Positions 748 through 56,710 of a stretch of DNA of 64,000 bases are shown in pieces. The notes under the pieces were generated by a model. The model had not been told where the DNA came from. It made no database searches and worked only from the letters and a program-made list of their open reading frames with translations. This stretch comes from Candidatus Beckwithbacteria bacterium (GTDB lineage: Bacteria; Patescibacteriota; Microgenomatia; UBA1400; CG1-02-47-37): positions 85,030 through 149,029 of the forward strand of contig JAPLVF010000013.1 in assembly GCA_026397255.1 (NCBI GenBank). The letters are read 5' to 3'. The position numbers were made by a program, and so were the translations under genes. Position 1 is the stretch's first letter, and each line of letters opens with the position of its first letter.

Positions 748-778
748 AATACCAAACTAAACCCAAAGATGAAGATTG

Positions 779-1543: not shown

Positions 1544-1554
1544 AAAAAACTCCT

Positions 1555-1782: not shown

Positions 1783-1783
1783 A

Positions 1784-2620
1784 TTAAAGGATTAAGCCTG
1801 GCTGGATTCCCACCAGCAAGATTAATAGTATACCTAAAAATATCAAGTGAGCCAAGCTGGAACCGGAAAGCCGGATAATTTTCTTTTTGGTCACAATCGC
1901 CGAATCGATTAAAATTACGGCTATAAGAATAATCGTTAAGCTGATAGAAATCGCTTTAGTTAAGTGAAAAGAGCTGATTAAGGGACTCGTTTTGATCTCT
2001 GCCAGAACGGCTTCGGCGTTGGCATTGATTTCTCCGGTTTTAACCGGCAGTGCCGAACTGACCTGCGTACCGAATAATTGAACGATTAAAGTAGTCGGCT
2101 GACCCTGAAAAGTATCCTGGATGACGGCAATACCGATTTCCCGGTAACGGCCGGAGAGAAGATTATCCCGGTGTGTCGGCGAGTTCATCCAAGCGGTAAT
2201 AACCGACGGAGAATCCTGAAAATCCCTGGCTAAATTCTCGCCGGCATAAAGATATTGATAATGAACATTTTTAAAAAAATCCCAAGGAGTGGTTCCGTCC
2301 GGCGACGCATGCGCCCAATAATTTTTGGCAATCATGTCCGCTCCTTTTTCCTGGGCAGCTTCGGATAAAAGCGGGCTAATCGTTAAGACCGGCAGGCCAT
2401 TTTCCTCCCGGGTTTTATTAGTCAGATTGACAATTTCGTCGGCAGTAATCGAAGAATTAATCCCTAAAACACCGGGCATCCTTGCCCCTAAGAAACTAAA
2501 ACAAACCTGGGTAAAAATTACTAAGACCAGCAAAACACTGAGCGAAGAAGCGTGAAGGGTTTTAGCTTTGTAGTTATTGGATTCCTGGGGGGTGAATAAA
2601 TGGGACAGTAAATGAATCAT
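1784..2620 (-). CDS. CAP/SCP (PR-1-like) domain protein, membrane-anchored
   Basis: Central region YWAHASPDGTTPWDFF...YAGENLARDF...AWMNSPTHRDNLLSGRYREIGIAV resembles the CAP/SCP family. Hydrophobic N- and C-terminal segments are present. Confidence 0.6.
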   Translation of the reverse strand: MIHLLSHLFTPQESNNYKAKTLHASSLSVLLVLVIFTQVCFSFLGARMPGVLGINSSITADEIVNLTNKTREENGLPVLTISPLLSEAAQEKGADMIAKNYWAHASPDGTTPWDFFKNVHYQYLYAGENLARDFQDSPSVITAWMNSPTHRDNLLSGRYREIGIAVIQDTFQGQPTTLIVQLFGTQVSSALPVKTGEINANAEAVLAEIKTSPLISSFHLTKAISISLTIILIAVILIDSAIVTKKKIIRLSGSSLAHLIFLGILLILLVGIQPGLIL

Positions 2621-2675
2621 TGATTCATTTTACTCAAGTTCAGCAGTAACAATCAAGCGCTTCAAGAAGTCTTGT

Positions 2676-9113: not shown

Positions 9114-9163
9114 AAATCACTCACCCCCCTTCTTTTTGCTATTATCTATTATAAATCACTATA

Positions 9164-9967
9164 TTATGAAAAGTGGATTGAACGCAAGTCAGATAAAGTC
9201 TTGGAGCTTAAACCAAGGCCGGATAATTTTTTGGCAGGAGCCTTAAGGACATCGCTGCATAACACTAAATTATTCTGAATTAAAATTTCCAGTTGGTGTT
9301 TTTCTAAAAAAGCAAAGCAAGTAACCGGATACAACTGATAGGTTTCAATTAATTGTTCCAGACTGTCTTTTGTAGGATAACGCCAAGCCAGCAATTTCAT
9401 TCCCCGACACTCACCATACTTAACGGCATTTTGAGTTAATTTGGTATTAGTGACCAACCACACTCCATGATAATCATTAACCGCGGTCACATCTTCAAAA
9501 CGGCCTTCGGTATAAAGGACATCTTTAGAATGGGATTTGGTGCCGGGCCGGTTATGAAATTTACACTCGATTAAAAATTTAAGATTATCTTTTTCGGCCA
9601 CCACATCAATTTCATGATCAATACAGCGGCCTTTAACGATCACTTGAGTTTGGGTGTGGAAACCCAGAGAGTTTAAAAGCCGGGCAACAAATTTTTCAAA
9701 CGGATAGCCGGACGGGCCTAAGGCCATCAAGGCTTCTTTTAAAGTGTAACGATAGCTATCACCGAATTGATATTGATTTAAAAGCGCAAAAACTTTGGTA
9801 TAAATTTCTTTGGTGGTAATGCCGTCGTAAAGCTGACCGATTAAGTTCACTAATATTTTATCGATAATGGCGGCTTTAACGCCGGCGCGCTGTAAAGACT
9901 GACGAACTTTACTTTCTAAAAAAACTTCTTTTTCTCCGGAAGCTTTAATAATATTAATGGCGGACAT
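9164..9967 (-). CDS. ATP-cone domain fused to an Mrr-like (PD-(D/E)xK) restriction-endonuclease domain
   Basis: The N-terminus MSAINIIKASGEKEVFLESKVRQSLQRAGVKAAIIDKILVNLI has an ATP-cone pattern like NrdR and RNR N-termini. The central region FEKFVARLLNSLGFHTQTQVIVKGRCIDHEIDVVAEKDNLKFLIECKF is a Mrr_cat-like D...E.K core. The start is moved to the internal Met (9967) because the upstream extension overlaps the divergent glycosyltransferase gene. Confidence 0.6.
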   Translation of the reverse strand: MSAINIIKASGEKEVFLESKVRQSLQRAGVKAAIIDKILVNLIGQLYDGITTKEIYTKVFALLNQYQFGDSYRYTLKEALMALGPSGYPFEKFVARLLNSLGFHTQTQVIVKGRCIDHEIDVVAEKDNLKFLIECKFHNRPGTKSHSKDVLYTEGRFEDVTAVNDYHGVWLVTNTKLTQNAVKYGECRGMKLLAWRYPTKDSLEQLIETYQLYPVTCFAFLEKHQLEILIQNNLVLCSDVLKAPAKKLSGLGLSSKTLSDLRSIHFS

Positions 9968-9989
9968 ACCCTTATGATAAACTAAAGCT

Positions 9990-10607
9990 ATGAAAATTTC
10001 TGCAATAGTGCCGGTTTTTAACGAAGAAAAAACCGTTAGCCGAATAATTAAAACTTTGCTGAAAAATAAATTCATCAACGAAGTTATTGTTGTCAATGAC
10101 GGATCGAGCGATTCGAGTCTAAAAATTCTTAAAAGTTTTAAGAAGAGAATTAAATTAATCGATTTAAAGAAAAATCACGGCAAGGGCAGGGCGATCGCCG
10201 AAGGCATTAAAAAAGCCCATGGGGAAATTGTGGTTTTTTTTGACGCGGACCTGACTAACTTAAACAATCAATACGTCAACCAATTAATTAAACCGCTGAT
10301 TAATAAAAAGTTCCGCGGGACTATCGGGATTTTAACCACCAAAAGTTACCTGCCCATCATTTTCCCGCCGCTGGCCGGGCTCAGAGCTTATTTTAGAAAA
10401 GATCTAATTGATCATTTTAAAGCAATCAGAAACAGCAAATATGGTGTCGAAGCTTTTTTCAATAAGTTATTCAAGGGGAAAGAGGTAAAAAAAGTCAGTT
10501 TAAGAGGTTTAAAATATTTGCGCAAAAATGAAAAACGCAGCAATAAAGAAGCGTTTAAAGAATACATCAAAATGTATAAGGAAATCGCTAAAGAAATGGT
10601 AAAATAG
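9990..10607 (+). CDS. Glycosyltransferase family 2 (short, dolichyl/undecaprenyl-phosphate sugar transferase-like)
   Basis: MKISAIVPVFNEEKTV...VIVVNDGSSDSS...VVFFDADL are GT2 motifs of the D-x-D type. Confidence 0.75.
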   Translation: MKISAIVPVFNEEKTVSRIIKTLLKNKFINEVIVVNDGSSDSSLKILKSFKKRIKLIDLKKNHGKGRAIAEGIKKAHGEIVVFFDADLTNLNNQYVNQLIKPLINKKFRGTIGILTTKSYLPIIFPPLAGLRAYFRKDLIDHFKAIRNSKYGVEAFFNKLFKGKEVKKVSLRGLKYLRKNEKRSNKEAFKEYIKMYKEIAKEMVK

Positions 10608-10634
10608 AGGGGCTTGCCCTGAACATCAGCGAAG

Positions 10635-10706
10635 GGCCCCATCGTCTAACGGTTAGGACAGCAGATTCTCAATCTGTAAATTCGGGTTCGATTCCCGGTG
10701 GGGCCA
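10635..10706 (+). tRNA. tRNA-Glu (anticodon CUC). CCA is not encoded.
   Basis: Cloverleaf folded by hand. The acceptor stem is GGCCCCA/TGGGGCC. The D arm is TCGTCTAACGGTTAGGAC. The anticodon stem is GCAGA/TCTGT with loop TTCTCAA (U33, anticodon CTC, A37). The T arm has GTTCGATTC. It closely parallels the E. coli tRNA-Glu architecture. Confidence 0.85.
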
Positions 10707-10797
10707 CAGTTTTAAATAAGGTTAGGTCATCTTTTATTCTCAATACTCTTCCCGAATTTTGGTCTAATGTATAATTAATCTGTTTAAACTCACGAAT

Positions 10798-11508
10798 ATG
10801 AGAAGATTATTAAAATTCATTGCTCCAAAAAGTTTTAACGATGGTCTCTCAAAATGTAATAATCTAGGAAAAAATCTAATAATAAAAAACAAAGTAAATA
10901 GATTTTTAGATCTTGGTTGTGCTGACGGTGAATTTACCCTAAAGTTCGCAAAAGTTTTACGGCCAGAAGAAATATATGGCGTAGAGATTGTTGATAAATA
11001 TTGCAATGAGGCTAAAAGGAAAGGAGTAAAGTGTGTAAAATTTGACTTAAATTCTAAATGGAAATTTGATAATAATTATTTTGATTTTATTTTATCCAGC
11101 CAAAACATTGAACATTTGCATAACACTAGACTTTACATGGAAGAATGCTATCGGTGCTTAAAAAAAGGAGGGCAATTATTAATACTAACTGAAAATTTAG
11201 CATCTTGGATTAATATTTGGTCGTTAATTTTTGGCTGGCAACCATTTTCAACAACTTTAATTAATGGTTGGAGTATTGGCAATCCATGTATTTGGCATTC
11301 TCAAAAACCTTCTAATAATACTGGCAAAACTAGCCACGTAAGAGTATTAGCCTTTAAGGGCTTAAAAGATATAATGCAACATATTGGTTTGAAAGATGTT
11401 CAAGTTTACTCCAGGGGTTATCTTCCATTCTGGGGAAAGCTATCAGATATTCTTTGTAGAGTTGATAAAAAACATGGACATTTTTTAATCGGAACAGGAA
11501 TAAAGTAA
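10798..11508 (+). CDS. Class I SAM-dependent methyltransferase, AT-rich and immediately downstream of tRNA-Glu
   Basis: FLDLGCADGEFT (motif I) ...CLKKGGQLLI (motif post-II/III). The codon usage is visibly more AT-rich than the flanks. Confidence 0.7.
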   Translation: MRRLLKFIAPKSFNDGLSKCNNLGKNLIIKNKVNRFLDLGCADGEFTLKFAKVLRPEEIYGVEIVDKYCNEAKRKGVKCVKFDLNSKWKFDNNYFDFILSSQNIEHLHNTRLYMEECYRCLKKGGQLLILTENLASWINIWSLIFGWQPFSTTLINGWSIGNPCIWHSQKPSNNTGKTSHVRVLAFKGLKDIMQHIGLKDVQVYSRGYLPFWGKLSDILCRVDKKHGHFLIGTGIK

Positions 11509-11599
11509 TATTATTCCTGATATATCCTTTTAAAATACTCTACCGAGGAGTTAGATATTCGCCCCTCCGGGCCACAAAATTATATTTATTAAATGTGTA

Positions 11600-11627
11600 T
11601 TGATTTTGGATTTCATAAGTATATAAT
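11600..11627 (+). promoter_or_regulatory. Putative sigma70-type promoter for greA
   Basis: TTGATT at 11600-11605, a 16-nt spacer, then TATAAT at 11622-11627, about 65 nt upstream of the greA start. Confidence 0.35.
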
Positions 11628-11692
11628 TCACCTTTGTAACTTCAGTTTGCCCGGTGAGGTAAAACTTTAATAATCTCCTGAAACAGGGTGAA

Positions 11693-12172
11693 GTGAAGTT
11701 TTCTTTTTTTATGCCGCAACAGGATTTTTATTTAACACCCGAAGGCTTAAAAGAGCTCAAAGAAGAGCTCAAGGTTTTAGTGGAAGAAAAAAAGCCGGCC
11801 CTACTGGAAAGAGTGGCGACCGCCAGGTCCCATGGTGATTTATCAGAAAACAGCGAATATGCTGCGGCCAGAGAAGATTTGGCGTTTGTGGAAGGCAGAA
11901 TTGAAGAAATTGAAACTTTGGTCGTTAAAGCCAAAATAATTAAAAGTAAAAAAACTGACGAAGTTAAATTGGGCAGTCTGGTGACAGTGAAAACCAATGG
12001 ATCAACTCAGACTTTTGAGCTGGTGGGCGAATGGGAAGCCGACCCATTGAAGCAGAAAATTTCCCACACTTCGCCTTTAGGCCAAGCGCTTTTAGGCAAG
12101 AAAAAAGGCGATAAAGTGGAAATTAAAGCCCCGGCCGGAAAAGTTATTTACCAAATTCACAAAATCGAATAA
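11693..12172 (+). CDS. greA: Transcription elongation factor GreA
   Basis: LTPEGLKELKEELKVL...ARSHGDLSENSEYAAA...SPLGQALLGKKKGDKVEI are GreA N-terminal coiled-coil and C-terminal FKBP-like motifs. 11693 is a GTG start; ATG at 11711 is an alternative. Confidence 0.8.
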   Translation: MKFSFFMPQQDFYLTPEGLKELKEELKVLVEEKKPALLERVATARSHGDLSENSEYAAAREDLAFVEGRIEEIETLVVKAKIIKSKKTDEVKLGSLVTVKTNGSTQTFELVGEWEADPLKQKISHTSPLGQALLGKKKGDKVEIKAPAGKVIYQIHKIE

Positions 12173-12204
12173 CTCCTCAAGGTTTTTGTTATATACTTAA
12201 AGAT

Positions 12205-14391
12205 ATGTTTTGGGCAGATGAATTGGCTGACGAAATCATTAAATCAGGGAAATATAAACCTTATCATGTTGATGACATGAAAACGCCTTCGGGCAAAATT
12301 CATGTCGGTGCCTTAAGAGGGGTAGTGGTCCACGACTTAATTTACCAAGCTTTGCTCAAACGAAAAGTTAAAGCCAGCTATAGCTGGGTATTTAACGACA
12401 TGGATCCAATGGATGCTTTCCCTTATTACTTAGCACCGGAATTTAAACAACAGATGGGAAAACCCTTATGTCAAATCCCCTCGCCGGAACCAGGATATCA
12501 GTCTTTGGCAGAAGGTTATGCCAAACAGTTTATTAAAGTCTTTAATGATTTGGGGGTGAAGCCGGAAATTATCTGGTCAAGCCAGTTTTACCGGCAGGGG
12601 AAATTTAATGAGATTATCCGGCAGGCTTTGGATAAGGTCGAAAAAATCAGACAGCTTTATCACGAAATTTCCGGCTACGACAAACCGAAAAATTGGTACC
12701 CTTACCAAGTAATTTGCCCTAAATGCGGCAAAATCGGGTCAACGATGGTGACTGACTGGGACGGCAAAATGGTCAGTTTTGAGTGTAAAAAGGATTTGGT
12801 CACCTGGGCAACTGGCTGCGGCTTTAAAGGCAAAATTGAACCGATTAATGCCAACGGCAAACTGATGTGGAAAGTGGATTGGGCCGCCCACTGGAAAGTG
12901 ATCGGGGTGACGATTGAGGGCGCCGGTAAAGATCATATGAGTAAAGGCGGTTCGCACGATTTATCCTCAGTCATCTGTGAACAGGTATTTAACTATCCCT
13001 CTCCGTTTGCTTTTAGCTATGAATGGTTTTTGGCTAAGGGCGGAGCAAAAATGTCGTCTTCCAAGGGTGTGGGGGTGTCGGCGGTAGAAATCAGCCAAAC
13101 ACTGCCGCCGGAAATTTTAAAATTTTTAATGGTAAAAACCAATTACCGGCGGGCAATTATTTTTGATCCGGCAAATAATGAAACAATTTTAAAATTGTTT
13201 GATGATTATGATGCCACCTTACCTCACAAAAATTTGCCCAGATTCAGAGATGTGGTTCAATATCTGCAGGACCCAAAAATTGATTTGAAAAAACAGTTTG
13301 CAAAAGCCAACAAAAAAGAATTGGAAAAACGAATTAAATATGGCAAAATCTGGCTGGATAAATATGCACCCGAAGAACAAGTTTTTCAAACAACTAAAGA
13401 AATTCCTGAATTTGTCGGGACTTTTACAAATACACAGCGTGAGATATTAACCAAAGCACATATTATCGCAATAGAAGCTAAATCACCTGAGGAGATTCAG
13501 CAAAAAATTTATGAGGAAGCTAAAACAATTGGGTTATCAACCAGTAAAGCGTTTGGAACAATTTACCAAGCAACAATAGGAAAAGATTATGGACCAAAAG
13601 CCGGATGGTTACTTTTTAACAATCAGCAAGCAATTAAAAGATTGGATGAAGCGGCTAAATTTAAACCAGCAGAAATCAAGTCAACAAAAACTGATTTAAT
13701 TAAATTAAGTCCGGAGTTTGTGAAAAAATACCCTTCGGCCAGTGTTGGGTTTGCTTTAATTAAGGGTGTTAAAATCGGGAAAATAAATACTGAGCTGGAA
13801 AAAGAAAAACAAGACTTTTTAAAAACAGTCAACGGCTTAACCACGGAGGCCTTGAATCAATCTCCGGAAATCCTGAGTTATCGAAAAATGTATAAACAAA
13901 TGGGGGTAGATTGGCACTCAAAACGGCCCAGCCCGGAAGCACTTTTAAGACGAATTGCCACCGGTAAAGGCTTATATAACCCGATTAATGTCATTGTCGA
14001 TGCCTATAATTTGATCGTTATGAAAAATAAAGTTTCCTGCGGGGCTTTTGATAGCGATAAAATTAAATTTCCCAGTGTGGTTCAAATAGCTCAGGGAGGG
14101 GAAACAGCTTTATTTCTCGGAGATAATCAACCAACGGTTTTAAAACCCGGCGAAGTTTGTTATTTTGACCAATTAGGGCCTTATAACATGGATTATAATT
14201 ATCGGGATGCTACCAGAGCGTTAGCCACGGAAAAAACCAAAAATGTTTGGGTTAACGTTGACGGCATATATGAAATTACACCGGATAAAGTTCAAAAAAC
14301 AGTGGAAGAAACAATCGCAATTATTATTAAATACTGCGGAGGCCAGGTGCTAGAAAAAGGCATCCTGGTGGCTAATGATCAAACGCGATGA
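12205..14391 (+). CDS. lysS: Class I lysyl-tRNA synthetase (LysK type) with a C-terminal B3/4-like domain
   Basis: KIHVGALRG is the HIGH-type motif of class I LysRS. KMSSSKG is the KMSKS motif. Zn-binding cysteines read CPKCG...C..C. The C-terminal 250 aa (...SCGAFDSDKIKFPSVVQIAQGGETALFLGDNQPTVLKPGEVCYFDQLGPYNMDYNYRDATRALATEKTKNVWVNVDG) match the B3/4 domain pattern of PheT. Confidence 0.8.
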   Translation: MFWADELADEIIKSGKYKPYHVDDMKTPSGKIHVGALRGVVVHDLIYQALLKRKVKASYSWVFNDMDPMDAFPYYLAPEFKQQMGKPLCQIPSPEPGYQSLAEGYAKQFIKVFNDLGVKPEIIWSSQFYRQGKFNEIIRQALDKVEKIRQLYHEISGYDKPKNWYPYQVICPKCGKIGSTMVTDWDGKMVSFECKKDLVTWATGCGFKGKIEPINANGKLMWKVDWAAHWKVIGVTIEGAGKDHMSKGGSHDLSSVICEQVFNYPSPFAFSYEWFLAKGGAKMSSSKGVGVSAVEISQTLPPEILKFLMVKTNYRRAIIFDPANNETILKLFDDYDATLPHKNLPRFRDVVQYLQDPKIDLKKQFAKANKKELEKRIKYGKIWLDKYAPEEQVFQTTKEIPEFVGTFTNTQREILTKAHIIAIEAKSPEEIQQKIYEEAKTIGLSTSKAFGTIYQATIGKDYGPKAGWLLFNNQQAIKRLDEAAKFKPAEIKSTKTDLIKLSPEFVKKYPSASVGFALIKGVKIGKINTELEKEKQDFLKTVNGLTTEALNQSPEILSYRKMYKQMGVDWHSKRPSPEALLRRIATGKGLYNPINVIVDAYNLIVMKNKVSCGAFDSDKIKFPSVVQIAQGGETALFLGDNQPTVLKPGEVCYFDQLGPYNMDYNYRDATRALATEKTKNVWVNVDGIYEITPDKVQKTVEETIAIIIKYCGGQVLEKGILVANDQTR

Positions 14392-15151
14392 ATTAATTAA
14401 ATTTGTTTATCAAACGATTGGCGAAGAACTAATCCAAAAAGCGCTGATTAAAGACGAGGTGGCCAACGGCGTGCAGTTTTTGGGCAGTGAAGAAATAAAT
14501 AAAGTGGCTTTAGGGGTCAGCTGCAATGAAGAGTTTTTGCTAGGGGCGGTAAAAGCCGGAGCGAATTTCTGTATTTTCCACCACGGGCTGGATACCCGAG
14601 TTTGGAAATCCCGTTTTCCTTTGTTTGCTCAAAAAAGATTAAAAGTTGTTATCGAAAATAAACTAACAATAATGGGGTTACATTACTCTTTAGACAGCCA
14701 TCCGAAAATCGGCAATAATGCCACTATAATTCGTTTGCTGGGGGCAGAAATTAAAGAAACTTTATTTGAAGAATGGGGCTATACAGCCACTTTTAATCAA
14801 CCACAAGACATTAAAGGATTGTTGGATAAATGCCAAAAATTATTTAATCATAAGGTTTTTAGCGTCCTGGCCGGGCCAAGCAAAGTGACAACAATAGGCG
14901 TAGTTTCCGGGGCCGGAAAACCAGATATGGCAGAGTTGGCAGAAATAGAAAGTAAAGGGGTCCAATTATATATTTCCGGAGAAACCAGCGAGTGGATTGT
15001 TCATCAAATAAAAGAGTCGGAAATCAATTATTTTTGCGGCGGACATTACGCGACCGAAGTTTTCGGGGTAAAAGAACTAGCTAAAAAAATTAAAGAAAAT
15101 TACCAAAATAAACTGGAAGTGGAATTTATCGACATTCCTAATGAAATATGA
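14375..15151 (+). CDS. Nif3-family (DUF34/YqfO-like) dinuclear metal-centre protein
   Basis: ANGVQFLGSEEINKVALGVSCNEEFLLGAVKAGANFCIFHHGLD matches the Nif3 N-terminal pattern (NVGL.vG...v....D.....A...gadl.i.HHPl). A C-terminal GGHYATE-type motif is present. Confidence 0.6.
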   Translation: MIKRDELIKFVYQTIGEELIQKALIKDEVANGVQFLGSEEINKVALGVSCNEEFLLGAVKAGANFCIFHHGLDTRVWKSRFPLFAQKRLKVVIENKLTIMGLHYSLDSHPKIGNNATIIRLLGAEIKETLFEEWGYTATFNQPQDIKGLLDKCQKLFNHKVFSVLAGPSKVTTIGVVSGAGKPDMAELAEIESKGVQLYISGETSEWIVHQIKESEINYFCGGHYATEVFGVKELAKKIKENYQNKLEVEFIDIPNEI

Positions 15152-48070: not shown

Positions 48071-48141
48071 TGCCGGATGGTGAAATGGCATCACAGGCGG
48101 CTCTGAACCGCCTATTCCAAGTCCGAATCTTGGTCCGGCAA
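48071..48141 (+). tRNA. tRNA-Gln (anticodon CUG), with U1-A72 and an unusual T-loop TCCGAAT
   Basis: Hand-folded cloverleaf. The acceptor is TGCCGGA/TCCGGCA (7 bp, perfect). U8 is present. The D stem is GTGA/TCAC with loop AATGGCA. The anticodon stem is GGCGG/CCGCC with loop CTCTGAA (U33, CTG, A37). The variable region is TATT. The T stem is CCAAG/CTTGG. The discriminator is A. Confidence 0.65.
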
Positions 48142-48281
48142 CACTACTGGACGGAAAGCGACCGTAAGCTCTTAAATAGGTTGATGGCACTTGCTAAACC
48201 TCTACTTTGTTTTTAGGAGTTTCGGACCGTCCCCCTTATTGTTCAGGGTCCTAAATATTTTTCTTCAGACAATTTTTGAAC

Positions 48282-49391
48282 TTAATTATTCTTTTTTCGT
48301 CTTATGAAGAAAATGTAGCCTGCTGCAAGAAGCGTGATTCCTATTCCAAAAAAGATTATATTTTTGCGACTACGACTTCCTTGGGAAACTGGGGAAATTG
48401 TGGGCGCTGGAGAAGAAGTTGCTTCTTTACCCAGCACTTCTCCCGCGGCTGAAACTGTTTCACCAAGCACTCCTGGAGCAAAACCTTCCGGAACCTCATT
48501 TATTACTTGACCATAAACATCGGTTGATAGCTCATTGGAAAAATCGCCTGGCATACAATTATTACCGGCCCTAACTTTGAAAAAATATTTAATTCCTGAC
48601 GACAGTCCTTTTACTGTATAGGATGTTGTATTATTTCCACCAACATTTGGATTTCCATAAAGCATTTCTCCGGATTTAGTTCCAAATGCAATTAAGTAAT
48701 AAGTTACCGGGTCCTTTGCTTTCGACCAGATTAAGGTAACTTCATTTGATCCACCTTGAATTATGGAAACAAGAGAAGGAGCGCTTCCAGGTTTTTCATC
48801 AGAACATACAGAAGAAGTAGAAGTTGTTGTTGTTCCCACTACTTCCCCTCCGCTACTTGTGTTATTTTCAGTCGCAAAACTTTTTTCATCACCAACTACC
48901 TCTGGTGAACCATGTGAAATTACACGGTAATAATAGGTAGTTTCTGCGGTGAGCCCACTGATTGTCACAGAATGTGAAGTAACTTTTGGAGAATTATCTG
49001 CTTCTATTGTAGAGTTAGCATAGCCATAGTTTGGAGCAATATCCAATACAGCGTGAGAAACAGTATCGTAAATCACTCTACTGGTACTTTGATGGTCAGT
49101 AGTCCAAACTATTGTTATGCTCGTTTCACTTGGTGCGTTAGTGGTTTCCTGTGAGATTGTGGGAGGTGGATTAACAGTAATGCTAATAGTGGCCGTATTG
49201 CTGTCAATCGTCCCGTCATTAGCTTTAAAGGTAAAAGAGTCTGTACCAGTGTAGCTGGCGGTTGGAGTGTAATCCACCTGGCTATCAGTCAAATTGCTTA
49301 AAATGCCATGGGAAACTCCGGAAACAATTGAGATCCAAAAAATAATTGATAAATTATACCTTAAAAAAAGGTAAGCAATGGTAAAAATCAC
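48282..49391 (-). CDS. Secreted FN3-like surface protein (369 aa) with a C-terminal TM anchor and basic tail
   Basis: A signal peptide, beta-rich T/S-rich repeats (ETTYYYRV is FN3-like) and C-terminal ...GEVLGKEATSSPAPTISPVSQGSRSRKNIIFFGIGITLLAAGYIFFIRRKKNN. Confidence 0.65.
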   Translation of the reverse strand: MIFTIAYLFLRYNLSIIFWISIVSGVSHGILSNLTDSQVDYTPTASYTGTDSFTFKANDGTIDSNTATISITVNPPPTISQETTNAPSETSITIVWTTDHQSTSRVIYDTVSHAVLDIAPNYGYANSTIEADNSPKVTSHSVTISGLTAETTYYYRVISHGSPEVVGDEKSFATENNTSSGGEVVGTTTTSTSSVCSDEKPGSAPSLVSIIQGGSNEVTLIWSKAKDPVTYYLIAFGTKSGEMLYGNPNVGGNNTTSYTVKGLSSGIKYFFKVRAGNNCMPGDFSNELSTDVYGQVINEVPEGFAPGVLGETVSAAGEVLGKEATSSPAPTISPVSQGSRSRKNIIFFGIGITLLAAGYIFFIRRKKNN

Positions 49392-49522
49392 TGACCCCTT
49401 TATTGATAAAATGGCTCCCTCTATCCAAAAAAAGGCGAAAGAAATTTTAGTTTATTGTAAAAATGATATTGTCAGAATTAAAAGAGAAAGGCCTAGAAGA
49501 AAAAAGCCAATAAATATTAAAA

Positions 49523-49909
49523 ATGACCATTAAAAAAGAGTCAGCCGAAGAATTTATCAAAAGAAAAGGAAACCTTTTTAAAAAACATAACACTATTCAA
49601 GTTAAAGATATTGGTAGGACTGGGGTTCATTATTTTATCCGTGAAGCTTGGACGTTTTTAGCACAGAGTAATCTTAAGGAAAAAGTGTTTGTTATCGAAC
49701 GATTAAGAAAAGAGTCGACTATAGGCAAACTGGCTTATGATAACTGGAAAAAAGGAGACATTGAATACAGAATCGGTTACTACATCGTAGGTAGAGTTGG
49801 TCGCGCCAAAGGGAAGTGGATTTGGGGGCAGTTTTGTCCAATGATTCCTCAAAACGATTTAGGTAAATTATTGGACAAAGCTCGGAAAGAAAGAACAATT
49901 ATTTACTAA
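49523..49909 (+). CDS. Hypothetical basic protein (128 aa), first gene of the island operon
   Basis: ORF with intergenic gaps of 16, 5 and 21 nt to the next three genes. No motif recognised. Confidence 0.5.
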   Translation: MTIKKESAEEFIKRKGNLFKKHNTIQVKDIGRTGVHYFIREAWTFLAQSNLKEKVFVIERLRKESTIGKLAYDNWKKGDIEYRIGYYIVGRVGRAKGKWIWGQFCPMIPQNDLGKLLDKARKERTIIY

Positions 49910-49925
49910 TTTGAACTAGGATTAT

Positions 49926-50525
49926 ATGCCTTTATCTGACAAAGCTATTCAAGAATATAAGGATATTTTTAAGAAAAAGTATGGTAAGGATTTATCTGAT
50001 GCTGAAGCCAAAGAACAAGGAGAAAACCTATTAGGATTTTTTGAGCTTTTGTTTAAAATGGCCGAAAAGGAATATTTAAGGAAACAGAGACTTAAAAGAG
50101 AAAAAATTAAGGGATTTTTCCTTGATGCCGATGAAGGAGCTTATTCTTGCGGGATTTGTGGAGAAAATTACCCCGGAAATAATATTTGGTGGAACCCAAA
50201 AGGATTAAAATGCCGAGATTGTTGGAGAAATATTAAAAATAGAGTAATCCCCGATTTGAAATATAAACATGATCATAATGAAGTTTGGATTCAAGATTGG
50301 CAAATAAAATACGACTATGGCGTTCACCCATCAACAGCAAGAAAACTTAGTCGAGAAGGATTGCTTCATGGGAGAGATTTAAAAAGAGAAAACGGAATGA
50401 CTTACTGTACGATTTATTTGGTGAAAGAAAATAAAGGGTTTTTAAAGAAATATCCGAAGAAGCCGGCAATTAAAGTTAAATTTGTTAATCCCGAGATTAA
50501 TAAAACAATGCAACAAAAAACATAA
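49926..50525 (+). CDS. Hypothetical protein with a C4-type zinc ribbon (199 aa)
   Basis: SCGICGEN...(13 aa)...CRDCW gives two CxxC pairs after an N-terminal helical region. Confidence 0.5.
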   Translation: MPLSDKAIQEYKDIFKKKYGKDLSDAEAKEQGENLLGFFELLFKMAEKEYLRKQRLKREKIKGFFLDADEGAYSCGICGENYPGNNIWWNPKGLKCRDCWRNIKNRVIPDLKYKHDHNEVWIQDWQIKYDYGVHPSTARKLSREGLLHGRDLKRENGMTYCTIYLVKENKGFLKKYPKKPAIKVKFVNPEINKTMQQKT

Positions 50526-50530
50526 GTTCT

Positions 50531-51367
50531 ATGCATTTTAATAAACGCCAGGAAGAATTAATTTCAGAGTATAAAAAACTTTTACTTTTTGGTTATCAAA
50601 AAATAAGCACAATCGGTCTAAATATTAAAAAAACTAGAGTAAGGAAAAGAGTTCTATATTTCATGATGGGTGCGATGCAAAATTTTTCTGAAAGTATATT
50701 GAAATTATTAGGTTCAATACCAATTTATGAAAGACCTGGAGAATCTCTATTAAGATCTCAGTTTGAATTATTGCTAAACGTAAGGTTTATTTATTCGGGC
50801 AGAACAGAAGAAAATGCAAGATTATTTCTTTCGGATTTATTACTAGAATCTATTAGCTTTGCAAAAAAACATCATAGGCTATGGGACAAATATCCCAAAT
50901 GGGATCTAACTTTCGGATCAATAAAAAAACCGTGTGATTGGGACAAATTTATCTTGGGAAGTTTATATGATCTACAAAAATATAGAGAAAGGCACGGTGA
51001 TAATAATGTTAATAAGCTACCCAGCTTATACGATAGAACTTTACAAATAGATAAATATCTTAAAAAGATAGGTACATTCTCCGAAAACAACAGCGCTGAG
51101 AAATATTATATTTACTATTATCAATTTTTTTCTCAAGCAACTCATTTAAATATGTCAGGGTTGCAAAGATATTTGAGAAGTAAAAAAGATATTTTAAAGG
51201 AACCCTTTTTTGATATTGATTCAAAACCTGAAGATGCTGAAAGAATATTGGCAGTTAGCTATCAAGCCTATTTTGTAATGCTTCGTCATTTTTTACAGGT
51301 ATTTAATAGTTTTGATAGCCATGAATTAAAGTTTTTTAACAAATATTCAAAAAAAATAGCAAAATAA
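50531..51367 (+). CDS. Hypothetical all-alpha protein (278 aa)
   Basis: ORF in the operon. No motif recognised. Confidence 0.5.
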   Translation: MHFNKRQEELISEYKKLLLFGYQKISTIGLNIKKTRVRKRVLYFMMGAMQNFSESILKLLGSIPIYERPGESLLRSQFELLLNVRFIYSGRTEENARLFLSDLLLESISFAKKHHRLWDKYPKWDLTFGSIKKPCDWDKFILGSLYDLQKYRERHGDNNVNKLPSLYDRTLQIDKYLKKIGTFSENNSAEKYYIYYYQFFSQATHLNMSGLQRYLRSKKDILKEPFFDIDSKPEDAERILAVSYQAYFVMLRHFLQVFNSFDSHELKFFNKYSKKIAK

Positions 51368-51388
51368 AGAATTATCTTTAAAAAAATT

Positions 51389-52645
51389 ATGGGTCCAACG
51401 ATAATATTTGATAAATCGTTCCTTCAAAGTATAAGCGTTGATGAATCCGTATTTCTTCAACAGTTTTTTATAACCAACGTAACCCCACTTTTTTATGTAG
51501 AGACTCTAGGAGACCTTGATTTAGGAAAACACAAAAGCGGGAAACCAATCACAGAAATTATTAGTGCACTAGCAATAAAAGTACCATCAACTAGTGTTGC
51601 GCCAAATATTCATCATAGAAGATTAATTATGGGTAATTTAATAGGCATGGACGTTGAAATGGATGGCAGAATTATTCGTGAAGGTGGTATCGAGAAAGTT
51701 GATCCTGACGGAAACGTTGGTATTCACTACTCTGAATCTCAAGAGGAAATGGCCTTAAATAGATGGCATAAAAGAGAATATTTTGCTGTTGAAAAATTAT
51801 TTTCTAAATCATGGAGAAATATGTTATCAAATCTAACCTTTGATCACATATTAGGAATCATTAAAAATCTTCTACCTAATAATGAAAAGTTATCAAATTA
51901 TTCACAAGTAAAAAAATTCGTAGATAAATTTATCACAAAAACAAAGATCGAGCTTTTACTTTATCTCGTTATTGAATTTTCAGGGATTAACCAAAATTAT
52001 TATCATAAAGCATTACAAAGATGGCGTAGAGAATCTATTTCGGATTTTGAGAAATTTGCCCCTTATGCAGCATATGTTTTAAAAATCGACTTGTTTTTCT
52101 ACATTTGCATGTTTCTTGGCTTGGAGTCGAAAAATCGTCCAAGCCATAAAATCGATCTAGCCTATTTATATTATTTACCTTTTTGTAATGTTTTCGTATC
52201 AAGCGATAAACTACATAAAAGAATTGTTAATTTTTTTTTGAGAAAAGATCAAATTTTTGTAGATGGCCCAGACTTTAAAAGAGGCTTAAGTAAATTAAAT
52301 GAATACTACTTGCATTATTTAGATCAAATTAATAAAGAAGGATTTATGAGATTTGCCCCTCAGCCTCCAAAAGATTTAGACAATACCGTTTCTAAAATAT
52401 GGGACAAAATATTTCCTAATTGGAGAGGAACAAAGCTAGATAAAATAAAAGAGAGAAATCCGGAAGAAGAAAAAATATTATTAGAAAAGTTAAAAAGAAT
52501 TCAGAAAGAATCAATTGTAGTTGATAGAAAAACACCTATGGATGACATTCATCACATTATCGAAACACATAAAGTTCTGGTTCAAAAAGGAAAATGGAGA
52601 ATTCTTCCCGAGGGAATAGAAAATAAAAAGTCACAAAATAAATAA
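51389..52645 (+). CDS. Hypothetical protein (418 aa), possibly with PIN-like features at the N-terminus
   Basis: N-terminal TIIFDKSFLQS...YVETLGDL and later NVFVSSDK segments loosely resemble the PIN acidic-residue pattern. Very tentative. Confidence 0.45.
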   Translation: MGPTIIFDKSFLQSISVDESVFLQQFFITNVTPLFYVETLGDLDLGKHKSGKPITEIISALAIKVPSTSVAPNIHHRRLIMGNLIGMDVEMDGRIIREGGIEKVDPDGNVGIHYSESQEEMALNRWHKREYFAVEKLFSKSWRNMLSNLTFDHILGIIKNLLPNNEKLSNYSQVKKFVDKFITKTKIELLLYLVIEFSGINQNYYHKALQRWRRESISDFEKFAPYAAYVLKIDLFFYICMFLGLESKNRPSHKIDLAYLYYLPFCNVFVSSDKLHKRIVNFFLRKDQIFVDGPDFKRGLSKLNEYYLHYLDQINKEGFMRFAPQPPKDLDNTVSKIWDKIFPNWRGTKLDKIKERNPEEEKILLEKLKRIQKESIVVDRKTPMDDIHHIIETHKVLVQKGKWRILPEGIENKKSQNK

Positions 52646-52755
52646 TATATCAAACTATATCAGCAATATTAAAGACGTCCCTTTTTATACTGTCTCATTT
52701 GTCTCATTTAGTCTGGGGATGATACACTATGGGAGTTTAGTTATAGCGACTTAAT

Positions 52756-52781
52756 GGTCCCAGACCGGACCGCTCAACTAA
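52756..52781 (+). promoter_or_regulatory. Conserved hairpin motif copy 1: GGTCCCAGACCGGACCGCTCAACTAA
   Basis: Stem GGTCC/GGACC. The motif ends 32 nt before the ATG at 52814. Confidence 0.5.
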
Positions 52782-52813
52782 TACGAGCAAAATTAATAAA
52801 AAAACAAAATTAT

Positions 52814-53626
52814 ATGGGTAATACATTAATTACTTACAAACAAAAATTAAATCTTAATAATGGATTTGTTATTAATATTAATGAATTTAAACGTATTTAT
52901 AGGGCTGTAGAGGAAACAATCAAAAATACCTCGGAATACAAAAAAGATATCAGTATCTACTCAAGCATAGAAGGTGAAACAAGTGCCGGAGATATAAAAG
53001 GACAATCTTTTGAAGATTTTCTAAATGAAATTATAACTCGACAGCTTGAGCTACAGTCTGTCAGAATATATCTGAGTTATAGTACTTATTCAAAAGAAAA
53101 TCCCTATTCCTATACAATCGACATGTATTTAGGAAGAGCTTTTGGTAACCAGATAAATCTGAGTGGATCAGACGAAAAATGGGTTTTAGATTCAAAAGAC
53201 AAACTTGAATTCACTTTTAGCAAGGTATCTCTATACCCCAAAGCTAAAAAGCCATTACCAACTAGATTAGTTGACTTTATATTTAATGGTAAGTTGGTAG
53301 TTACGGCGTGGATAATGGTGATTTTCTCTCTTTTGTTTTCGAAATTTTTCCCAAACATTTATTATGCCTGGATAAGTTCGTTTATTATCGCATATGCGTT
53401 AATGGGTGTAGCTACATTGGCGCTTATTAACCAAGGAGACAAAACTCCAATCGCAAAATTCATGTTTGTAAATAAAGAAAAGCAGGCTACCAAAAAGTCA
53501 ATTGTTGATTATGCTGTGAAGCAGCCGAGAATAATTCAAATAATCCTTTTCATTTTTGCTTTGGTAGGTTTTATTTCTGCGATATTTACAATAATAGACA
53601 TTGCTAAAAGATATAACTGGATATAG
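52814..53626 (+). CDS. Hypothetical protein with an N-terminal soluble domain and two C-terminal TM helices (270 aa)
   Basis: The start is set at MGNTLITYK because the upstream in-frame extension is the conserved nucleotide motif. The C-terminus has hydrophobic helices VVTAWIMVIFSLLF... and IIQIILFIFALVGFISAIF. Confidence 0.5.
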   Translation: MGNTLITYKQKLNLNNGFVININEFKRIYRAVEETIKNTSEYKKDISIYSSIEGETSAGDIKGQSFEDFLNEIITRQLELQSVRIYLSYSTYSKENPYSYTIDMYLGRAFGNQINLSGSDEKWVLDSKDKLEFTFSKVSLYPKAKKPLPTRLVDFIFNGKLVVTAWIMVIFSLLFSKFFPNIYYAWISSFIIAYALMGVATLALINQGDKTPIAKFMFVNKEKQATKKSIVDYAVKQPRIIQIILFIFALVGFISAIFTIIDIAKRYNWI

Positions 53627-53653
53627 TTATTTAGTTATTTATAAGGATAGAAT

Positions 53654-53679
53654 GGTCCGAGATCGGGCCACTCAACTAA
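53654..53679 (+). promoter_or_regulatory. Conserved hairpin motif copy 2: GGTCCGAGATCGGGCCACTCAACTAA
   Basis: Extended stem GGTCCGA/TCGGGCC with one G-T position. It ends 2 nt before the ATG at 53682. Confidence 0.5.
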
Positions 53680-53681
53680 AT

Positions 53682-54362
53682 ATGAAATTAAAAGTGGGAT
53701 ACTACAATGAAGAATACAATCTAAAAGAATTCTATGAATTGAAGAAGAAGAATTTTTGGATTGTAATTGTTGTTTTATTATTAACCTTTTTAATAGTTAC
53801 TTTTAAACTACTCCCAAATAATTTTACGGCGGTTTTAATTTCCTTTGTTGCTGTCGGTGTAATATCTGATTTATTGATAAATATGATTGTGGGTAATATT
53901 TGGAGCCGTAAGTCTTTAAGAGATGTTGATGGCGTTCAAAAATATCTATCTCCATTAGAACAGGTGTCTTGGTTACCCAGAATAATTGGTATTTTTGAAC
54001 GAATAATCTTTACGGCTAGTTTTATTATGCAAAAACCTGAATTCATTGGTATTTGGTTAGGTTTGAAAGTTATTGGAAGCTGGAAAGACAATTCTCCTGA
54101 AAATCTGGAGAAAGAAAGAAAGAAAAAAGAAAAAGGGGAAAAAGTAATTAAACTCTGGCGCATAAGAGAGAATATTTTTCTTATAGGGACAGCTTTATCA
54201 CTTTTTTCGAGTTTTTTCGCATCCTACATATATTCACAAATAATTCATTTAACCAATTCTTTCGATAATAAATCTATCCATCTTCAGAAAAAAATTATGT
54301 ATTTACAACATAATTATTATCATTTTCCAGCGTACGATAATTTTTCAAAATCAGAAAAATAA
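53682..54362 (+). CDS. Hypothetical polytopic membrane protein (227 aa)
   Basis: The start is set at MKLKVGYY. About 4 TM helices and a KE-rich loop (EKERKKKEKGEK). Confidence 0.5.
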   Translation: MKLKVGYYNEEYNLKEFYELKKKNFWIVIVVLLLTFLIVTFKLLPNNFTAVLISFVAVGVISDLLINMIVGNIWSRKSLRDVDGVQKYLSPLEQVSWLPRIIGIFERIIFTASFIMQKPEFIGIWLGLKVIGSWKDNSPENLEKERKKKEKGEKVIKLWRIRENIFLIGTALSLFSSFFASYIYSQIIHLTNSFDNKSIHLQKKIMYLQHNYYHFPAYDNFSKSEK

Positions 54363-54428
54363 ATTAGTCATAGACCAACTAGTTAAGTAAATTTGAGACA
54401 AATACGGAGATTGTCTTTAAATTTGAAT

Positions 54429-55025
54429 ATGCAACAATATATATGGGGAACATGCCAAACGAAAAAATATTCAATATTAGAAGTAAGCCAATCACAAAAT
54501 CAAATAGTTATAAGGCCAATTGGAACAAAAACACATTTAACTTTACACAAGCTCGATGTTAAAAAGGAAACTGATCAGTACTGGATAGTTAAATATCAAA
54601 ATTCTCCACTTAAGTTATATAAAAATTCGTATGCGCCTATATCATTTAGTTGGAATAGTTCAGCAATTAGAGGAGTCTGGTCAGATTTAATAGTAGATGT
54701 GGCAAGGAAAAGTGGATTTTTAAATCCGGAAAAACACGCCACCTCTTCTCAAGGTTTATTAGTTAAATGTGTAAACACAATGGGTTACGATATCGGTACA
54801 ACTAGAATAGAATTGAATCATAGCTCTATCAAGGCAAAATATCTTAAACAGGCTGATAAGATCGCTGAATTAGATCTAAAAAATACTAAATTTATGGTTA
54901 GGATAATTCTTTCAACTCCAGATAATGAATATAAAAACAAGTCAGATTGTTCATTTGAAACTAATTTAGGTAAATTATTTATTGTTAATGAAGAGGTACC
55001 AGTTATCAGGATAAAACGGTCCTAG
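54429..55025 (+). CDS. Hypothetical soluble protein (about 198 aa)
   Basis: The ATG at 54429 (MQQYIWG...) is preferred over the TTG start at 54393. The stop codon TAG lies inside motif copy 3. Confidence 0.45.
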   Translation: MQQYIWGTCQTKKYSILEVSQSQNQIVIRPIGTKTHLTLHKLDVKKETDQYWIVKYQNSPLKLYKNSYAPISFSWNSSAIRGVWSDLIVDVARKSGFLNPEKHATSSQGLLVKCVNTMGYDIGTTRIELNHSSIKAKYLKQADKIAELDLKNTKFMVRIILSTPDNEYKNKSDCSFETNLGKLFIVNEEVPVIRIKRS

Positions 55026-55043
55026 ACCGAACCGCTCAATAAA
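55018..55043 (+). promoter_or_regulatory. Conserved hairpin motif copy 3: GGTCCTAGACCGAACCGCTCAATAAA
   Basis: The most diverged copy. It contains the stop codon of the upstream gene and ends 39 nt before the ATG at 55083. Confidence 0.45.
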
Positions 55044-55082
55044 TAGGTACTTAATACACCTAAAATTTGATATTATAAAAAT

Positions 55083-55979
55083 ATGAATATAAATATAAGT
55101 ATAAATACAAATAAAAATCAACTTTCCCTGACCCCATTGGAAATTGCATCTAACAAACTTTTTGCAGTTTTGCTGGCCTTGTCCACTCTCATGTATTTTT
55201 TAAATATATTTACTCTCCCGACAATCATTATCTATATAGTGTTTGTCTTTTTCCTCTGGTTCGGTAAAAAATATCGCCTGTTTGCCAACATTATTTTTTT
55301 AATTTTCGCTATAGGTGTTTATTTTATCCCAATTACGCCCATTGGCTGGGGGCTTTTCCGCATGCTAAAAGAACTTCGACTTGGCGATGTTGATTTTAAT
55401 TTTGCCTTAATTTTTTACCTTGCCGCACTTATTTTTATTTCTTTTTCGGTTAGAAATGTTTTAGGCAATATTTTCGCTTACTTTAAAACCAGCACCGCGT
55501 CGCGTAATGTTTATTATTTTATTTCTCTAGTTATTGTTTTGGCAACACTCTTAGCTTATCCGTTTTTGGATAGCGTAAAGTTACGCGATCAATCTTTTCC
55601 AGCACAAGGAACCGGAGATCTGAGTACAATTGTCATACGACAAACACTTACTTTTATAGATCGTTATCATAAAGAGGACGGTTTCACTTCGAGGTTTGAT
55701 TCTTCCACTAAAAAATATGTTTACCGTTTGCGATTACTTGAGCCATTAAATAAAGACCTTCAATTTACAAAAGTTGAAACTGACGGCGAAAAAATTAATT
55801 TTACAACTGATAACCGGGTAAAATGTTTGAATTGTCAAAAGGATATGGGCAATCCCTACGGCTTAGTTTTCCCGGCTGGCAAAGACATTGATTTCATCAT
55901 CTCCAGTGACCAGTTGATTAGGACAATAAATTTCACTGAGCAGGAAAATAAGCTGGCTGAATTTGTTTTTTGGAAATAA
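55083..55979 (+). CDS. Hypothetical membrane protein with about 4 N-terminal TM helices and a soluble C-terminal domain (298 aa)
   Basis: Hydrophobic segments FAVLLALSTLMYFL, IIIYIVFVFFLWF, IIFLIFAIGVYFI and ALIFYLAALIFISF. Confidence 0.5.
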   Translation: MNINISINTNKNQLSLTPLEIASNKLFAVLLALSTLMYFLNIFTLPTIIIYIVFVFFLWFGKKYRLFANIIFLIFAIGVYFIPITPIGWGLFRMLKELRLGDVDFNFALIFYLAALIFISFSVRNVLGNIFAYFKTSTASRNVYYFISLVIVLATLLAYPFLDSVKLRDQSFPAQGTGDLSTIVIRQTLTFIDRYHKEDGFTSRFDSSTKKYVYRLRLLEPLNKDLQFTKVETDGEKINFTTDNRVKCLNCQKDMGNPYGLVFPAGKDIDFIISSDQLIRTINFTEQENKLAEFVFWK

Positions 55980-56024
55980 TTTCGGAGGATAAAGTTTGCA
56001 AACTACACTTATAATGATATTAAG

Positions 56025-56049
56025 GGTCCAGACCGGACCGCTCAACTAA
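56025..56049 (+). promoter_or_regulatory. Conserved hairpin motif copy 4: GGTCCAGACCGGACCGCTCAACTAA (one nt shorter)
   Basis: It ends 1 nt before the ATG at 56051. An in-frame TAA within the motif rules it out as coding extension. Confidence 0.5.
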
Positions 56050-56050
56050 G

Positions 56051-56710
56051 ATGAAATTTTTTAGATATTTGCTGGCGTTTTTAACTATCTTAATTTTTAT
56101 TTTGGCCATTTATTTTGGGTTTTTTAAGACGAAAAATAAAGAACACACGATTCTTTCACCGATCGCAGAAGTAACTACCCAAAAAACTTCAAATTTCTCA
56201 CTAGAAAAAGCACCAACGGAATCACTTAAAGGAAAAATTGTGACTATGACAGGAGAAATTAGCTGGCAGTCAAGAACGGCAACTGAGGCAGCCAGAATTT
56301 TTTCGCCCAGCGAAATTCAACAAGGAGAGAAATTAATTACCGGAGAAAAAAGCAATTTAGCTTTGGTTTTTACAGAGGCCTGTTCGGTAACACTTTCGGA
56401 GAAAACAGAAATGGAGATTGTGCAAACTCTTCCGGCCAATATAGTTTTTTCCCAAACTAACGGGACTGGCGAATATGTTAAAACAGGTGGTTATCCTGTG
56501 ACTATCAGGGTGATGAACCTTTTGGCAGAAGAGGATGGTGATATGATCGTCTCTATTGATCCAAAAAAACCGATTATTAGCTTGACTCTAAGGTCAGGAA
56601 AAGCGACGGCGGCCTTTAATGATTTAAATTATGTCAGTCATGAAATGACAGTGGTTGCCGGACAAACTTTTATTTTCAATTATGATACGCGGAAAGGGGT
56701 TCTAAAATAG
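56051..56710 (+). CDS. Hypothetical signal-anchored secreted protein (219 aa)
   Basis: MKFFRYLLAFLTILIFILAIYFGFF is a signal anchor. The 3' end overlaps the convergent GH18 gene by about 35 nt. Confidence 0.5.
   Translation: MKFFRYLLAFLTILIFILAIYFGFFKTKNKEHTILSPIAEVTTQKTSNFSLEKAPTESLKGKIVTMTGEISWQSRTATEAARIFSPSEIQQGEKLITGEKSNLALVFTEACSVTLSEKTEMEIVQTLPANIVFSQTNGTGEYVKTGGYPVTIRVMNLLAEEDGDMIVSIDPKKPIISLTLRSGKATAAFNDLNYVSHEMTVVAGQTFIFNYDTRKGVLK

Follow-up and report, generated by a model that had tools for sequence, protein, structure and literature searches.

Does a run of tightly packed genes form one system, or a row of genes that move independently and share only a strand and a place? The question is raised by a stretch of 64,000 nucleotides (nt) from Candidatus Beckwithbacteria bacterium, a member of the Patescibacteriota (GenBank assembly GCA_026397255.1, contig JAPLVF010000013.1, positions 85,030 to 149,029 of the forward strand), here called the window. 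Within it, four open reading frames (ORFs), named A to D, lie in a block on the plus strand with gaps of only 16, 5 and 21 nt, at the left end of an island (~49.4-56.05 kb) whose genes have a GC content of 0.28-0.35, compared with ~0.40-0.41 in its flanks. An initial annotation had taken the four, whose lengths and gaps are confirmed by their coordinates, to be a single operon and a candidate module of novel accessory or defence function. We instead favor, as the probable explanation, a co-oriented and probably co-transcribed array of separately mobile accessory genes, located in the slot where a family of small patescibacterial elements derived from phages carries its variable cargo. Throughout, E to H are the further ORFs of the island, and L-numbers denote comparison loci.

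That A-D are real genes follows from two observations. Stop-free frames of their lengths are improbable in DNA of ~31% GC (chance of 3e-5 to 2e-15), and each has many homologs, with at least 401 for A, 65 close ones for B, and 1591 for D in a word-indexed search. When A-H were compared with Pfam, NCBIfam, PHROGs and PADLOC, the sole match was that of C to the family DUF5677, and no match at E<=1 was found in PADLOC-DB. That none of the four could at first be assigned to a known family is thus borne out, with C alone reaching a Pfam DUF.

Mosaicism was tested with tblastn searches of A-H against 68 loci and by clustering all neighboring genes, with relatives of B drawn from a scan of one genome per species that yielded 47 species. 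No locus other than the window carries A, B, C and D together among the 47 B-bearing species, 11 contexts of D and three contexts of A. A precedes B once among the 47 species with a B-domain gene, while C and D are found together in the window and in one fusion protein only. Conservation of the four-gene neighborhood had been chosen beforehand as the deciding point, and because it is not conserved, the single-module idea fails. It is thus very improbable that A-D make up one new multi-component defence system, with nucleic acid sensed or bound by A and B, an adaptor in C and the nuclease effector in D. Such a system would account for the short gaps, for the lack of an internal boundary module (see below), and for the occurrence of all four families in the same kind of element or hotspot. 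It is contradicted by the lack of any second locus joining the four, by very unequal family sizes (about 65 for B, at least 401 for A, at least 1591 for D), and by the monocistronic placement of D elsewhere. Two links survive, a facultative adjacency of B and C and a single D::DUF5677 fusion.

A defence-gene hotspot and its boundary module

The gene that marks the slot is that of B or of a longer relative, c0, a protein of ~545 amino acids (aa) with three invariant C4 ribbons. In 34 of the 47 species, residues ~28-195 of B match the C-terminal ~160 aa of c0 (from about residue 385), while the short B form is found in ten species. The Zn-ribbon/winged-helix-like domain that ends c0 stands by itself in B. 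Upstream of c0, a recurring core is found, composed of TerL (matching phrog_38, E 2.5e-76), TerS, a ParB_N+N6_N4 methyltransferase (ParB-methyltransferase), a LexA/S24 repressor and an XRE regulator, often joined by a large serine recombinase. Downstream of B/c0, clustering of all neighbors shows that the genes differ from species to species. Among 106 proteins encoded within three genes after B/c0 in the 47 species, DUF5677 is the commonest (7), followed by LexA/S24 (5), Shedu SduA_C (4), SMODS (4), AGS_C (3), PLDc_2 (3) and GIY-YIG (3). The slot also holds SAVED, bacterial HORMA, DUF4238-'Pers', MADS mad2 and many PADLOC cyclase models. The slot after B/c0 is a hypervariable defence-gene hotspot, and the earlier suggestion of accessory genes in a defence setting is borne out by a neighborhood dominated by defence genes.

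How such an element is laid out can be seen in a complete genome (L033). To the left lie XRE, TerL, TerS and ParB-methyltransferase genes, and to the right a LexA-like gene, a Cap15-type receptor, c0 and DUF5677, after which the element ends immediately ahead of the ATP-synthase operon. In L033, neither capsid nor portal genes were recognized. The compact TerL/TerS element resembles a satellite or a phage remnant that bears the defence hotspot. Compact elements of ~10-12 kb are present at L033:1300-12500 and L046:1000-11400, and also in L036, L058, L026 and L072. In a 26-kb IMG/VR contig (L167, 3300020195_001307), positions 1-5363 are identical to 9118-14480. The exact repeat unit of 9,117 nt holds TerL, TerS, two methyltransferases and the boundary module, and the exact repetition suggests a circular or concatemeric free form. 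Adjoining B/c0 in three species (L026:6593-9350, L031 and L060) is a conserved pair of unannotated proteins of ~400 and ~515 aa (clusters c52 and c27), which may be another two-gene cargo system. The window holds the right-hand cargo arm only, consisting of A, B, C, D, the boundary module and three small module-bounded cassettes.

The right border of the slot is a piece of DNA. Four copies of a 46-nt direct repeat stand at 52741, 53639, 55003 and 56009, and the remainder of the 64-kb window has none. A sequence model made from the window copies and those of L021 and L055 gave 57 hits across the fetched loci (1.06 Mb), almost always in the orientation of the genes. The full module spans ~135-160 nt (~140) and begins 0-30 nt past the stop of the preceding gene. 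The blocks of the full copy in the window are, in order, TATATCAAACTATATCA; CTTTTTATAC-TGTCTCATT-TGTCTCATTT; TGaTACAcT; GTTATAGCGAC; GGTCCCAGACCGGACC; and GCTCAAC. The consensus begins with TATATCAAACTAT-ATCA and CTTTTTATAC-TGTCTCATT-TGTCTCATTT-AGCC, in which the TGTCTCATT 9-mers stand as tandem direct repeats. These blocks are followed by TGnTAcAAT with TTGTCT 17-18 nt upstream, which reads as a sigma-70 -35/extended -10. Next, a variable insert precedes GTTATAAGGAC, GGTYCnAGACC and YGCTCAGC(CA), where GGTYCnAGACC becomes the perfect palindrome GGTCTAGACC in some copies.

The placement of the module is highly regular. The 40 copies of its core, from 35 non-redundant loci, are all on the plus strand, and 38 of 38 lie downstream of B/c0 with none upstream. 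Beyond the window, the module is found in L001, L008 and the range L013-L065. Because the module is intergenic in 35 of 39 cases, preceded by a same-strand gene in 32 and followed by a convergent gene in nine, it behaves as a 3′ cassette boundary. What precedes it varies, and can be B (L026), c0 (L042), C (L046, L015 and L031), D (L054 and L059), D with one further gene (L049), or D with c20, a protein of 323-329 aa that accompanies the closest D relatives (L001 and L008) and is absent from the window. The module is a candidate outward promoter/operator, a candidate recombination site, or both. Its 3′ part resembles the T-arm and acceptor end of a tRNA. ARAGORN finds no full or pseudo tRNA in the repeat, and the sequence does not match the neighboring tRNA-Gln, of which it might have been a fragment. 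A structured RNA was likewise rejected, with no Rfam match and no conserved pairing by RNAalifold in 57 or 24 copies. A metagenome scan with a 22-nt core gave mostly chance matches, with motif flanks shared by 0 of 12, as did a viral scan with a 19-nt core, where the rest of the module accompanied 3 of 117 copies.

The four proteins

The C4 zinc ribbon reported in B after a helical N-terminus is present. Four cysteines in two CxxC pairs (C75, C78, C96 and C99) are invariant in 32 homologs, and the AlphaFold2 model (predicted local distance difference test, pLDDT, 87) has an N-terminal helical hairpin, a beta Zn-ribbon (strands 72-96) and a beta-alpha-alpha-beta-beta unit. B is accordingly modelled as a helical hairpin, a C4 Zn-ribbon and a winged-helix-like domain. 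Foldseek matches in the PDB are weak. The best is the Rad14/XPA DNA-binding domain (E 0.07), followed by MarR/PadR winged helices (E 0.3-1) and the Mu repressor. The C-terminal part of B has no HTH_17/MerR-like match in Pfam, and PDB profile searches with B and c0 found nothing beyond generic Zn-ribbon similarity. In two loci (L017:6001-6924 and L022; proteins P0169 and P0173), the B protein continues at its C-terminus into an HNH nuclease domain, and in L013 a separate HNH gene (5685-6017) precedes B. Another locus (L015) has two B-family genes 6 kb apart (6001-6585 and 12135-12585), which bracket a DUF5677 gene and a module resembling a cyclic oligonucleotide-based antiphage signalling system (CBASS). 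B would bind DNA, possibly at the module repeats or palindrome, and in doing so would regulate or anchor the cargo region.

By its sequence, A is a separate conserved small protein, whose homologs (58-83% identity) share 29 invariant positions. Profile searches gave A no match in Pfam, PADLOC, PHROG or PDB. It adjoins B in one comparison locus only (L018), is isolated in L069-71, and in L072/73 lies in the rightward arm of an element with a recombinase, a TerL-like protein and a ParB-methyltransferase. The protein is indeed very basic, as first described (isoelectric point, pI, of 10.0), although this carries little weight as evidence, since the island proteins are all basic (pI 9.2-9.7). A would be an unrelated small accessory or regulatory protein. 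There is nearly an even chance that A and B are housekeeping proteins of the mobile element, such as a transcription activator, an excision or replication factor or a packaging-site binder, with no part in defence. This would explain why B/c0 is the constant gene beside a variable region, why B/c0 has three Zn ribbons and a winged-helix-like part with weak XPA-, MarR- and Mu-repressor-like fold matches, and why B is fused or adjacent to HNH nucleases. The early rightward position of A in L072/73 is consistent with it, and the module 9-mers and palindrome would be candidate binding sites. Set against this are the lack of a family match for either protein and the absence from the window of the remaining element that such functions would require.

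C matches Pfam DUF5677 (PF18928) at E 1.3e-8, with 35.6 bits against a curated cut-off of 27.1, and its relatives in L015, L017 and L033 likewise carry a DUF5677 annotation or score. Each of the 12 DUF5677 genes in the data set has a B/c0 gene no more than three genes away, and the adjacency of B and C is therefore real but facultative, being found in eight of the 47 species and directly downstream in five. The DUF5677 subfamily of C is specifically tied to B/c0 genes. A PDB profile search of C returned nothing meaningful. In a preprint, DUF5677 is enriched beside serine recombinases in Bacillota (PMC12632615). C would be an independent helical defence or regulatory protein, which may cooperate with D because one lineage fuses D and DUF5677.

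The fusion in question, P0385 (703 aa), has a D-family domain at residues 1-422 and a DUF5677 domain at residues 491-613, and its ORF is continuous in two independent samples (L086:1791-3902 and L087:1694-3805). Together with the 21-nt gap between C and D and the first boundary module lying only past D, it argues for C and D as a two-gene system here, DUF5677 partner and nuclease, with B/c0 merely a neighboring platform gene. We nonetheless regard such a pair as unlikely. Outside the window, DUF5677 is missing from the 11 distinct D contexts examined, and none of the other 11 DUF5677 genes is accompanied by D. The fused DUF5677 belongs to a different subfamily from C and stands in the opposite order, and the usual arrangement is C alone followed by the module (L046, L015 and L031).

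D belongs to a very large family, with 2317 clusters at 50% identity in an exhaustive search (919 below 1e-30), conserved over its full length and without a Pfam, PADLOC or PDB relative. In 56 sequences of 37-67% identity, the residues D8, K9, S10, E38, D42, D256, S271, D273 and H276 are invariant. The three motifs first noticed in D as faintly PIN-like contain the invariant D8-K9-S10, E38/D42 and S271/D273. The AlphaFold2 model (pLDDT 92; predicted template modelling score, pTM, 0.90) runs from strand 4-7 through helices, strand 28-30 and helix 33-45 into a ~200-aa helical insertion, and continues with helix 252-265, strand 268-271, helix 274-282, strand 289-292, further helices and a small C-terminal domain. 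In this secondary structure, the invariant acids are placed where beta1 ends, within the helix that follows beta2, and within a unit of helix, strand and S-x-D, positions which we take to be those where PIN domains place their catalytic acids. The model fits an autonomous protein with a split PIN-like core (residues 1-47 + 250-310), a helical insertion and a C-terminal domain. Like PIN nucleases (VapC, and PIN-like proteins with insertions), D has four invariant acidic positions, in hhhD-[KT]-S after beta1, as a glutamate in the helix after beta2, as an aspartate that opens a helix, and in hhh-S-x-D following a strand, and its predicted topology alternates beta and alpha. Unlike them, its core is split by the insertion and followed by a ~110-aa C-terminal domain, it has no PIN profile or fold match, and it has no antitoxin partner. 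It also differs in its 418 aa from VapBC-like type II toxin-antitoxin pairs, in which a small antitoxin gene lies upstream of that of a ~130-aa PIN toxin.

The contexts of D are diverse, and its neighbors never repeat across those examined. In L001 it stands beside housekeeping genes with a 323-aa partner, in L008 it follows a restriction-modification system, in L006 (Actinomycetota) its partner is a protein of 699 aa, and in L010-12 it comes after a serine recombinase and is paired with an overlapping HTH_3 (XRE-type) gene for 69 aa. D is monocistronic between opposite-strand genes both on a viral contig (L066) and on a conjugative element, where it stands alone between type IV secretion system pilin genes and the relaxase region (L003-5). 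In three of the 47 species (L049, L054 and L059), D lies one to four genes downstream of B/c0, and in L054 and L059 it begins 18 nt after the SMODS gene of a trio encoding a LexA-like protein, a small protein and SMODS. D is a self-contained single-gene unit of many kinds of mobile element. No CD-NTase/SMODS cyclase is encoded in the window. The recurring module of LexA-like protein, ~170-aa protein and SMODS has a swappable last gene (L054:10516-14274; L059:10506-14276; L065:10438-14227; L036:5940-8880; L015:9221-12145). D takes that place in two species, L065 has a coiled-coil protein of 440 aa there, and others have a protein of 235-260 aa. D may substitute for a CBASS-type effector. Among isolate phages and plasmids, the sole trace of D is a decayed fragment on a conjugative Granulicella plasmid. 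IMG/VR gave one hit to B, three hits to D (32-35% identity) and none to A or C.

Some of these contexts bear on whether D acts against phages at all. Its place on a conjugative element (L003-5), the overlapping XRE-type helix-turn-helix gene next to a serine recombinase (L010-12) and the decayed plasmid copy would suit an addiction toxin or a weapon between elements, used for entry exclusion or against plasmids or defence systems. We find this role doubtful. D is far larger than classical PIN toxins and has no conserved antitoxin partner, as the upstream gene varies and the 69-aa HTH_3 gene is found in L010-12 only. It also recurs in the slot of bona fide antiphage systems, following the SMODS cyclase in L054 and L059. 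In the array of separate genes that we favor, D would serve as the effector, cutting nucleic acid in a metal-dependent way through a PIN-like active site (D8, E38/D42, D256 and D273). Its activity would be gated by the helical insertion and C-terminal domain, and it would act alone as an abortive-infection, immunity or toxin protein.

A number of results weigh against this explanation or parts of it. The PIN assignment of D found no support from homology searches: a Pfam scan of 56 full-length members gave no PIN family at E<=1 and no recurrent family, eight spliced cores gave no PIN at E<=10, and PDB profile searches with D and the spliced core gave no PIN chain. Foldseek searches of PDB and BFVD were non-significant, with PIN only at rank 29 (E 3.4), and hhalign of D to one PIN_3 protein gave a probability of 0.2%. 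The defence role would follow by guilt by association, among loci that were chosen through B. A DUF5677 gene tried in Enterococcus faecalis against six phages was outside the five protective ORFs (PMC12632615). The 64-kb window has no TerL, TerS, ParB-methyltransferase or recombinase, and since these element core genes are missing, the island may have a different history. Finally, no boundary module separates A, B, C and D. By module punctuation, A-D are one cassette and may be functionally coupled locally, especially C with D.

The island around the block

The features of the region are collected in Table 1. The island is preceded by thiI, a tRNA-Gln and an opposite-strand fn3 surface-protein gene. 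The tRNA-Gln(CTG), called by ARAGORN at 48071-48142, is oriented toward the island and unrelated to the repeat, and the Rfam tRNA model is silent there at its gathering threshold. Transcription of A-D as a unit is plausible from the sequence, with AGGA 8 nt ahead of the ATG of B. Consensus scans of the region found fewer promoter-like sites than in shuffled sequence, no enrichment of the type upstream of A, and no terminator-like site on the plus strand. A 51-aa ORF that overlaps the start of A is not conserved and was rejected as a gene.

Table 1. Features of the A-D block and its surroundings, in window coordinates
Feature	Position	Strand	Remarks
Promoter-like site, candidate block promoter	49328-49355	+	TTGAGA-16-TAAATT with TG, upstream of A; consensus scan
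Low-GC accessory island	49392-56050		from fn3 surface-protein gene start to first normal-GC gene at 56051
A	49523-49909	+	128 aa
B	49926-50525	+	199 aa
C	50531-51367	+	278 aa
D	51389-52645	+	418 aa
Full module copy	52646-52785	+	starts at first base after stop of D
E, F, G, H	52754-55979	+	E 290 aa as listed; F start likelier 53682; G 210 aa; H 298 aa
Partial module copy, 3′ ~45 nt	53637-53680	+	between E and F; E-value 2.7e-8
Partial module copy, 3′ ~45 nt	55001-55046	+	overlaps stop of G, upstream of H; E-value 1.2e-8
Partial module copy, 3′ ~45 nt	56007-56051	+	island right edge, abuts ATG of first normal-GC gene; E-value 7.5e-10

Past D, the partial module copies bound E, F+G and H. E, F and H carry hydrophobic segments that resemble transmembrane segments. 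Library searches gave no family match for E-H, and the four are not paralogs, having no mutual similarity. The listed starts of E and F (52754 and 53601) lie within the repeat or ahead of it, so that translation of both ORFs as listed would open with repeat sequence. Their true starts are probably downstream, at ~52816 and 53682.

Known systems and significance

The closest counterparts of the slot are the defence hotspots of P2-like prophages and P4-like satellites, reportedly described by Rousset et al. in 2022. Both have a variable slot between conserved features, with swappable Shedu, CBASS and restriction-modification systems on small phage-related integrative elements. Defence on related mobile elements has been reported for pipolins (PMC11551731) and in association with serine recombinases (PMC12632615). 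Unlike the P2/P4 hotspots, the slot described here belongs to Patescibacteria and to a core of TerL, TerS, ParB-methyltransferase, LexA-like repressor and three-Zn-ribbon protein. Capsid genes were not seen in L033, a DNA module of ~140 nt takes the place of a gene as right border, and the window holds the cargo arm only.

DNA sites that punctuate genes are known from integron attC sites, the 'stoperators' of mycobacteriophage L5 and tRNA-derived att repeats. Like these, the module is intergenic, kept in one orientation, placed after gene cassettes and repeated at the cassette boundaries of the window. It differs from all of them in being conserved over ~140 nt and in carrying sigma-70-like -35/extended -10 elements. 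It differs from an integron in having no conserved hairpin and no IntI or other recombinase in the window, and from tRNA-derived att repeats in having no full tRNA. Small Zn-finger activators are also known from phages, namely Ogr of P2 and Delta of P4. Like these and XPA/Rad14, B has a C4 zinc module beside an alpha/beta, putatively DNA-binding unit, here on a phage-related element, and the genes beside B might need control of their expression. In contrast to them, B has a Foldseek E of only 0.07, no sequence similarity and another architecture, and its DNA binding is predicted.

A wider interpretation, which we put forward as speculative and improbable as a whole, would make the region from c0/B to the module a dedicated platform for immune-gene cassettes (integron-like or moron-like) on terminase-encoding, capsid-less, satellite-like elements of Patescibacteria. 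There, c0/B would bind the module repeats. D would be the founding member of a new and very large family in which one PIN-like nuclease protein confers immunity by itself, with DUF5677 as a second new defence family able to work with D.

Patescibacteria account for much of bacterial diversity. To our knowledge, they are regarded as having few of the classical immune systems, CRISPR (clustered regularly interspaced short palindromic repeats) among them, and their mobile elements have barely been described. The c0/B gene on the left and the 140-nt module on the right make a hotspot of defence-gene exchange recognizable, and could serve as a search handle for new systems. Two families that are abundant and unannotated, D (more than 2300 clusters) and DUF5677, occur in this hotspot. 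The compact TerL/TerS element that carries it, with no visible capsid genes, may be a satellite. If D is indeed a lone, gated PIN-like nuclease, it would add a widespread type of single-gene immunity.

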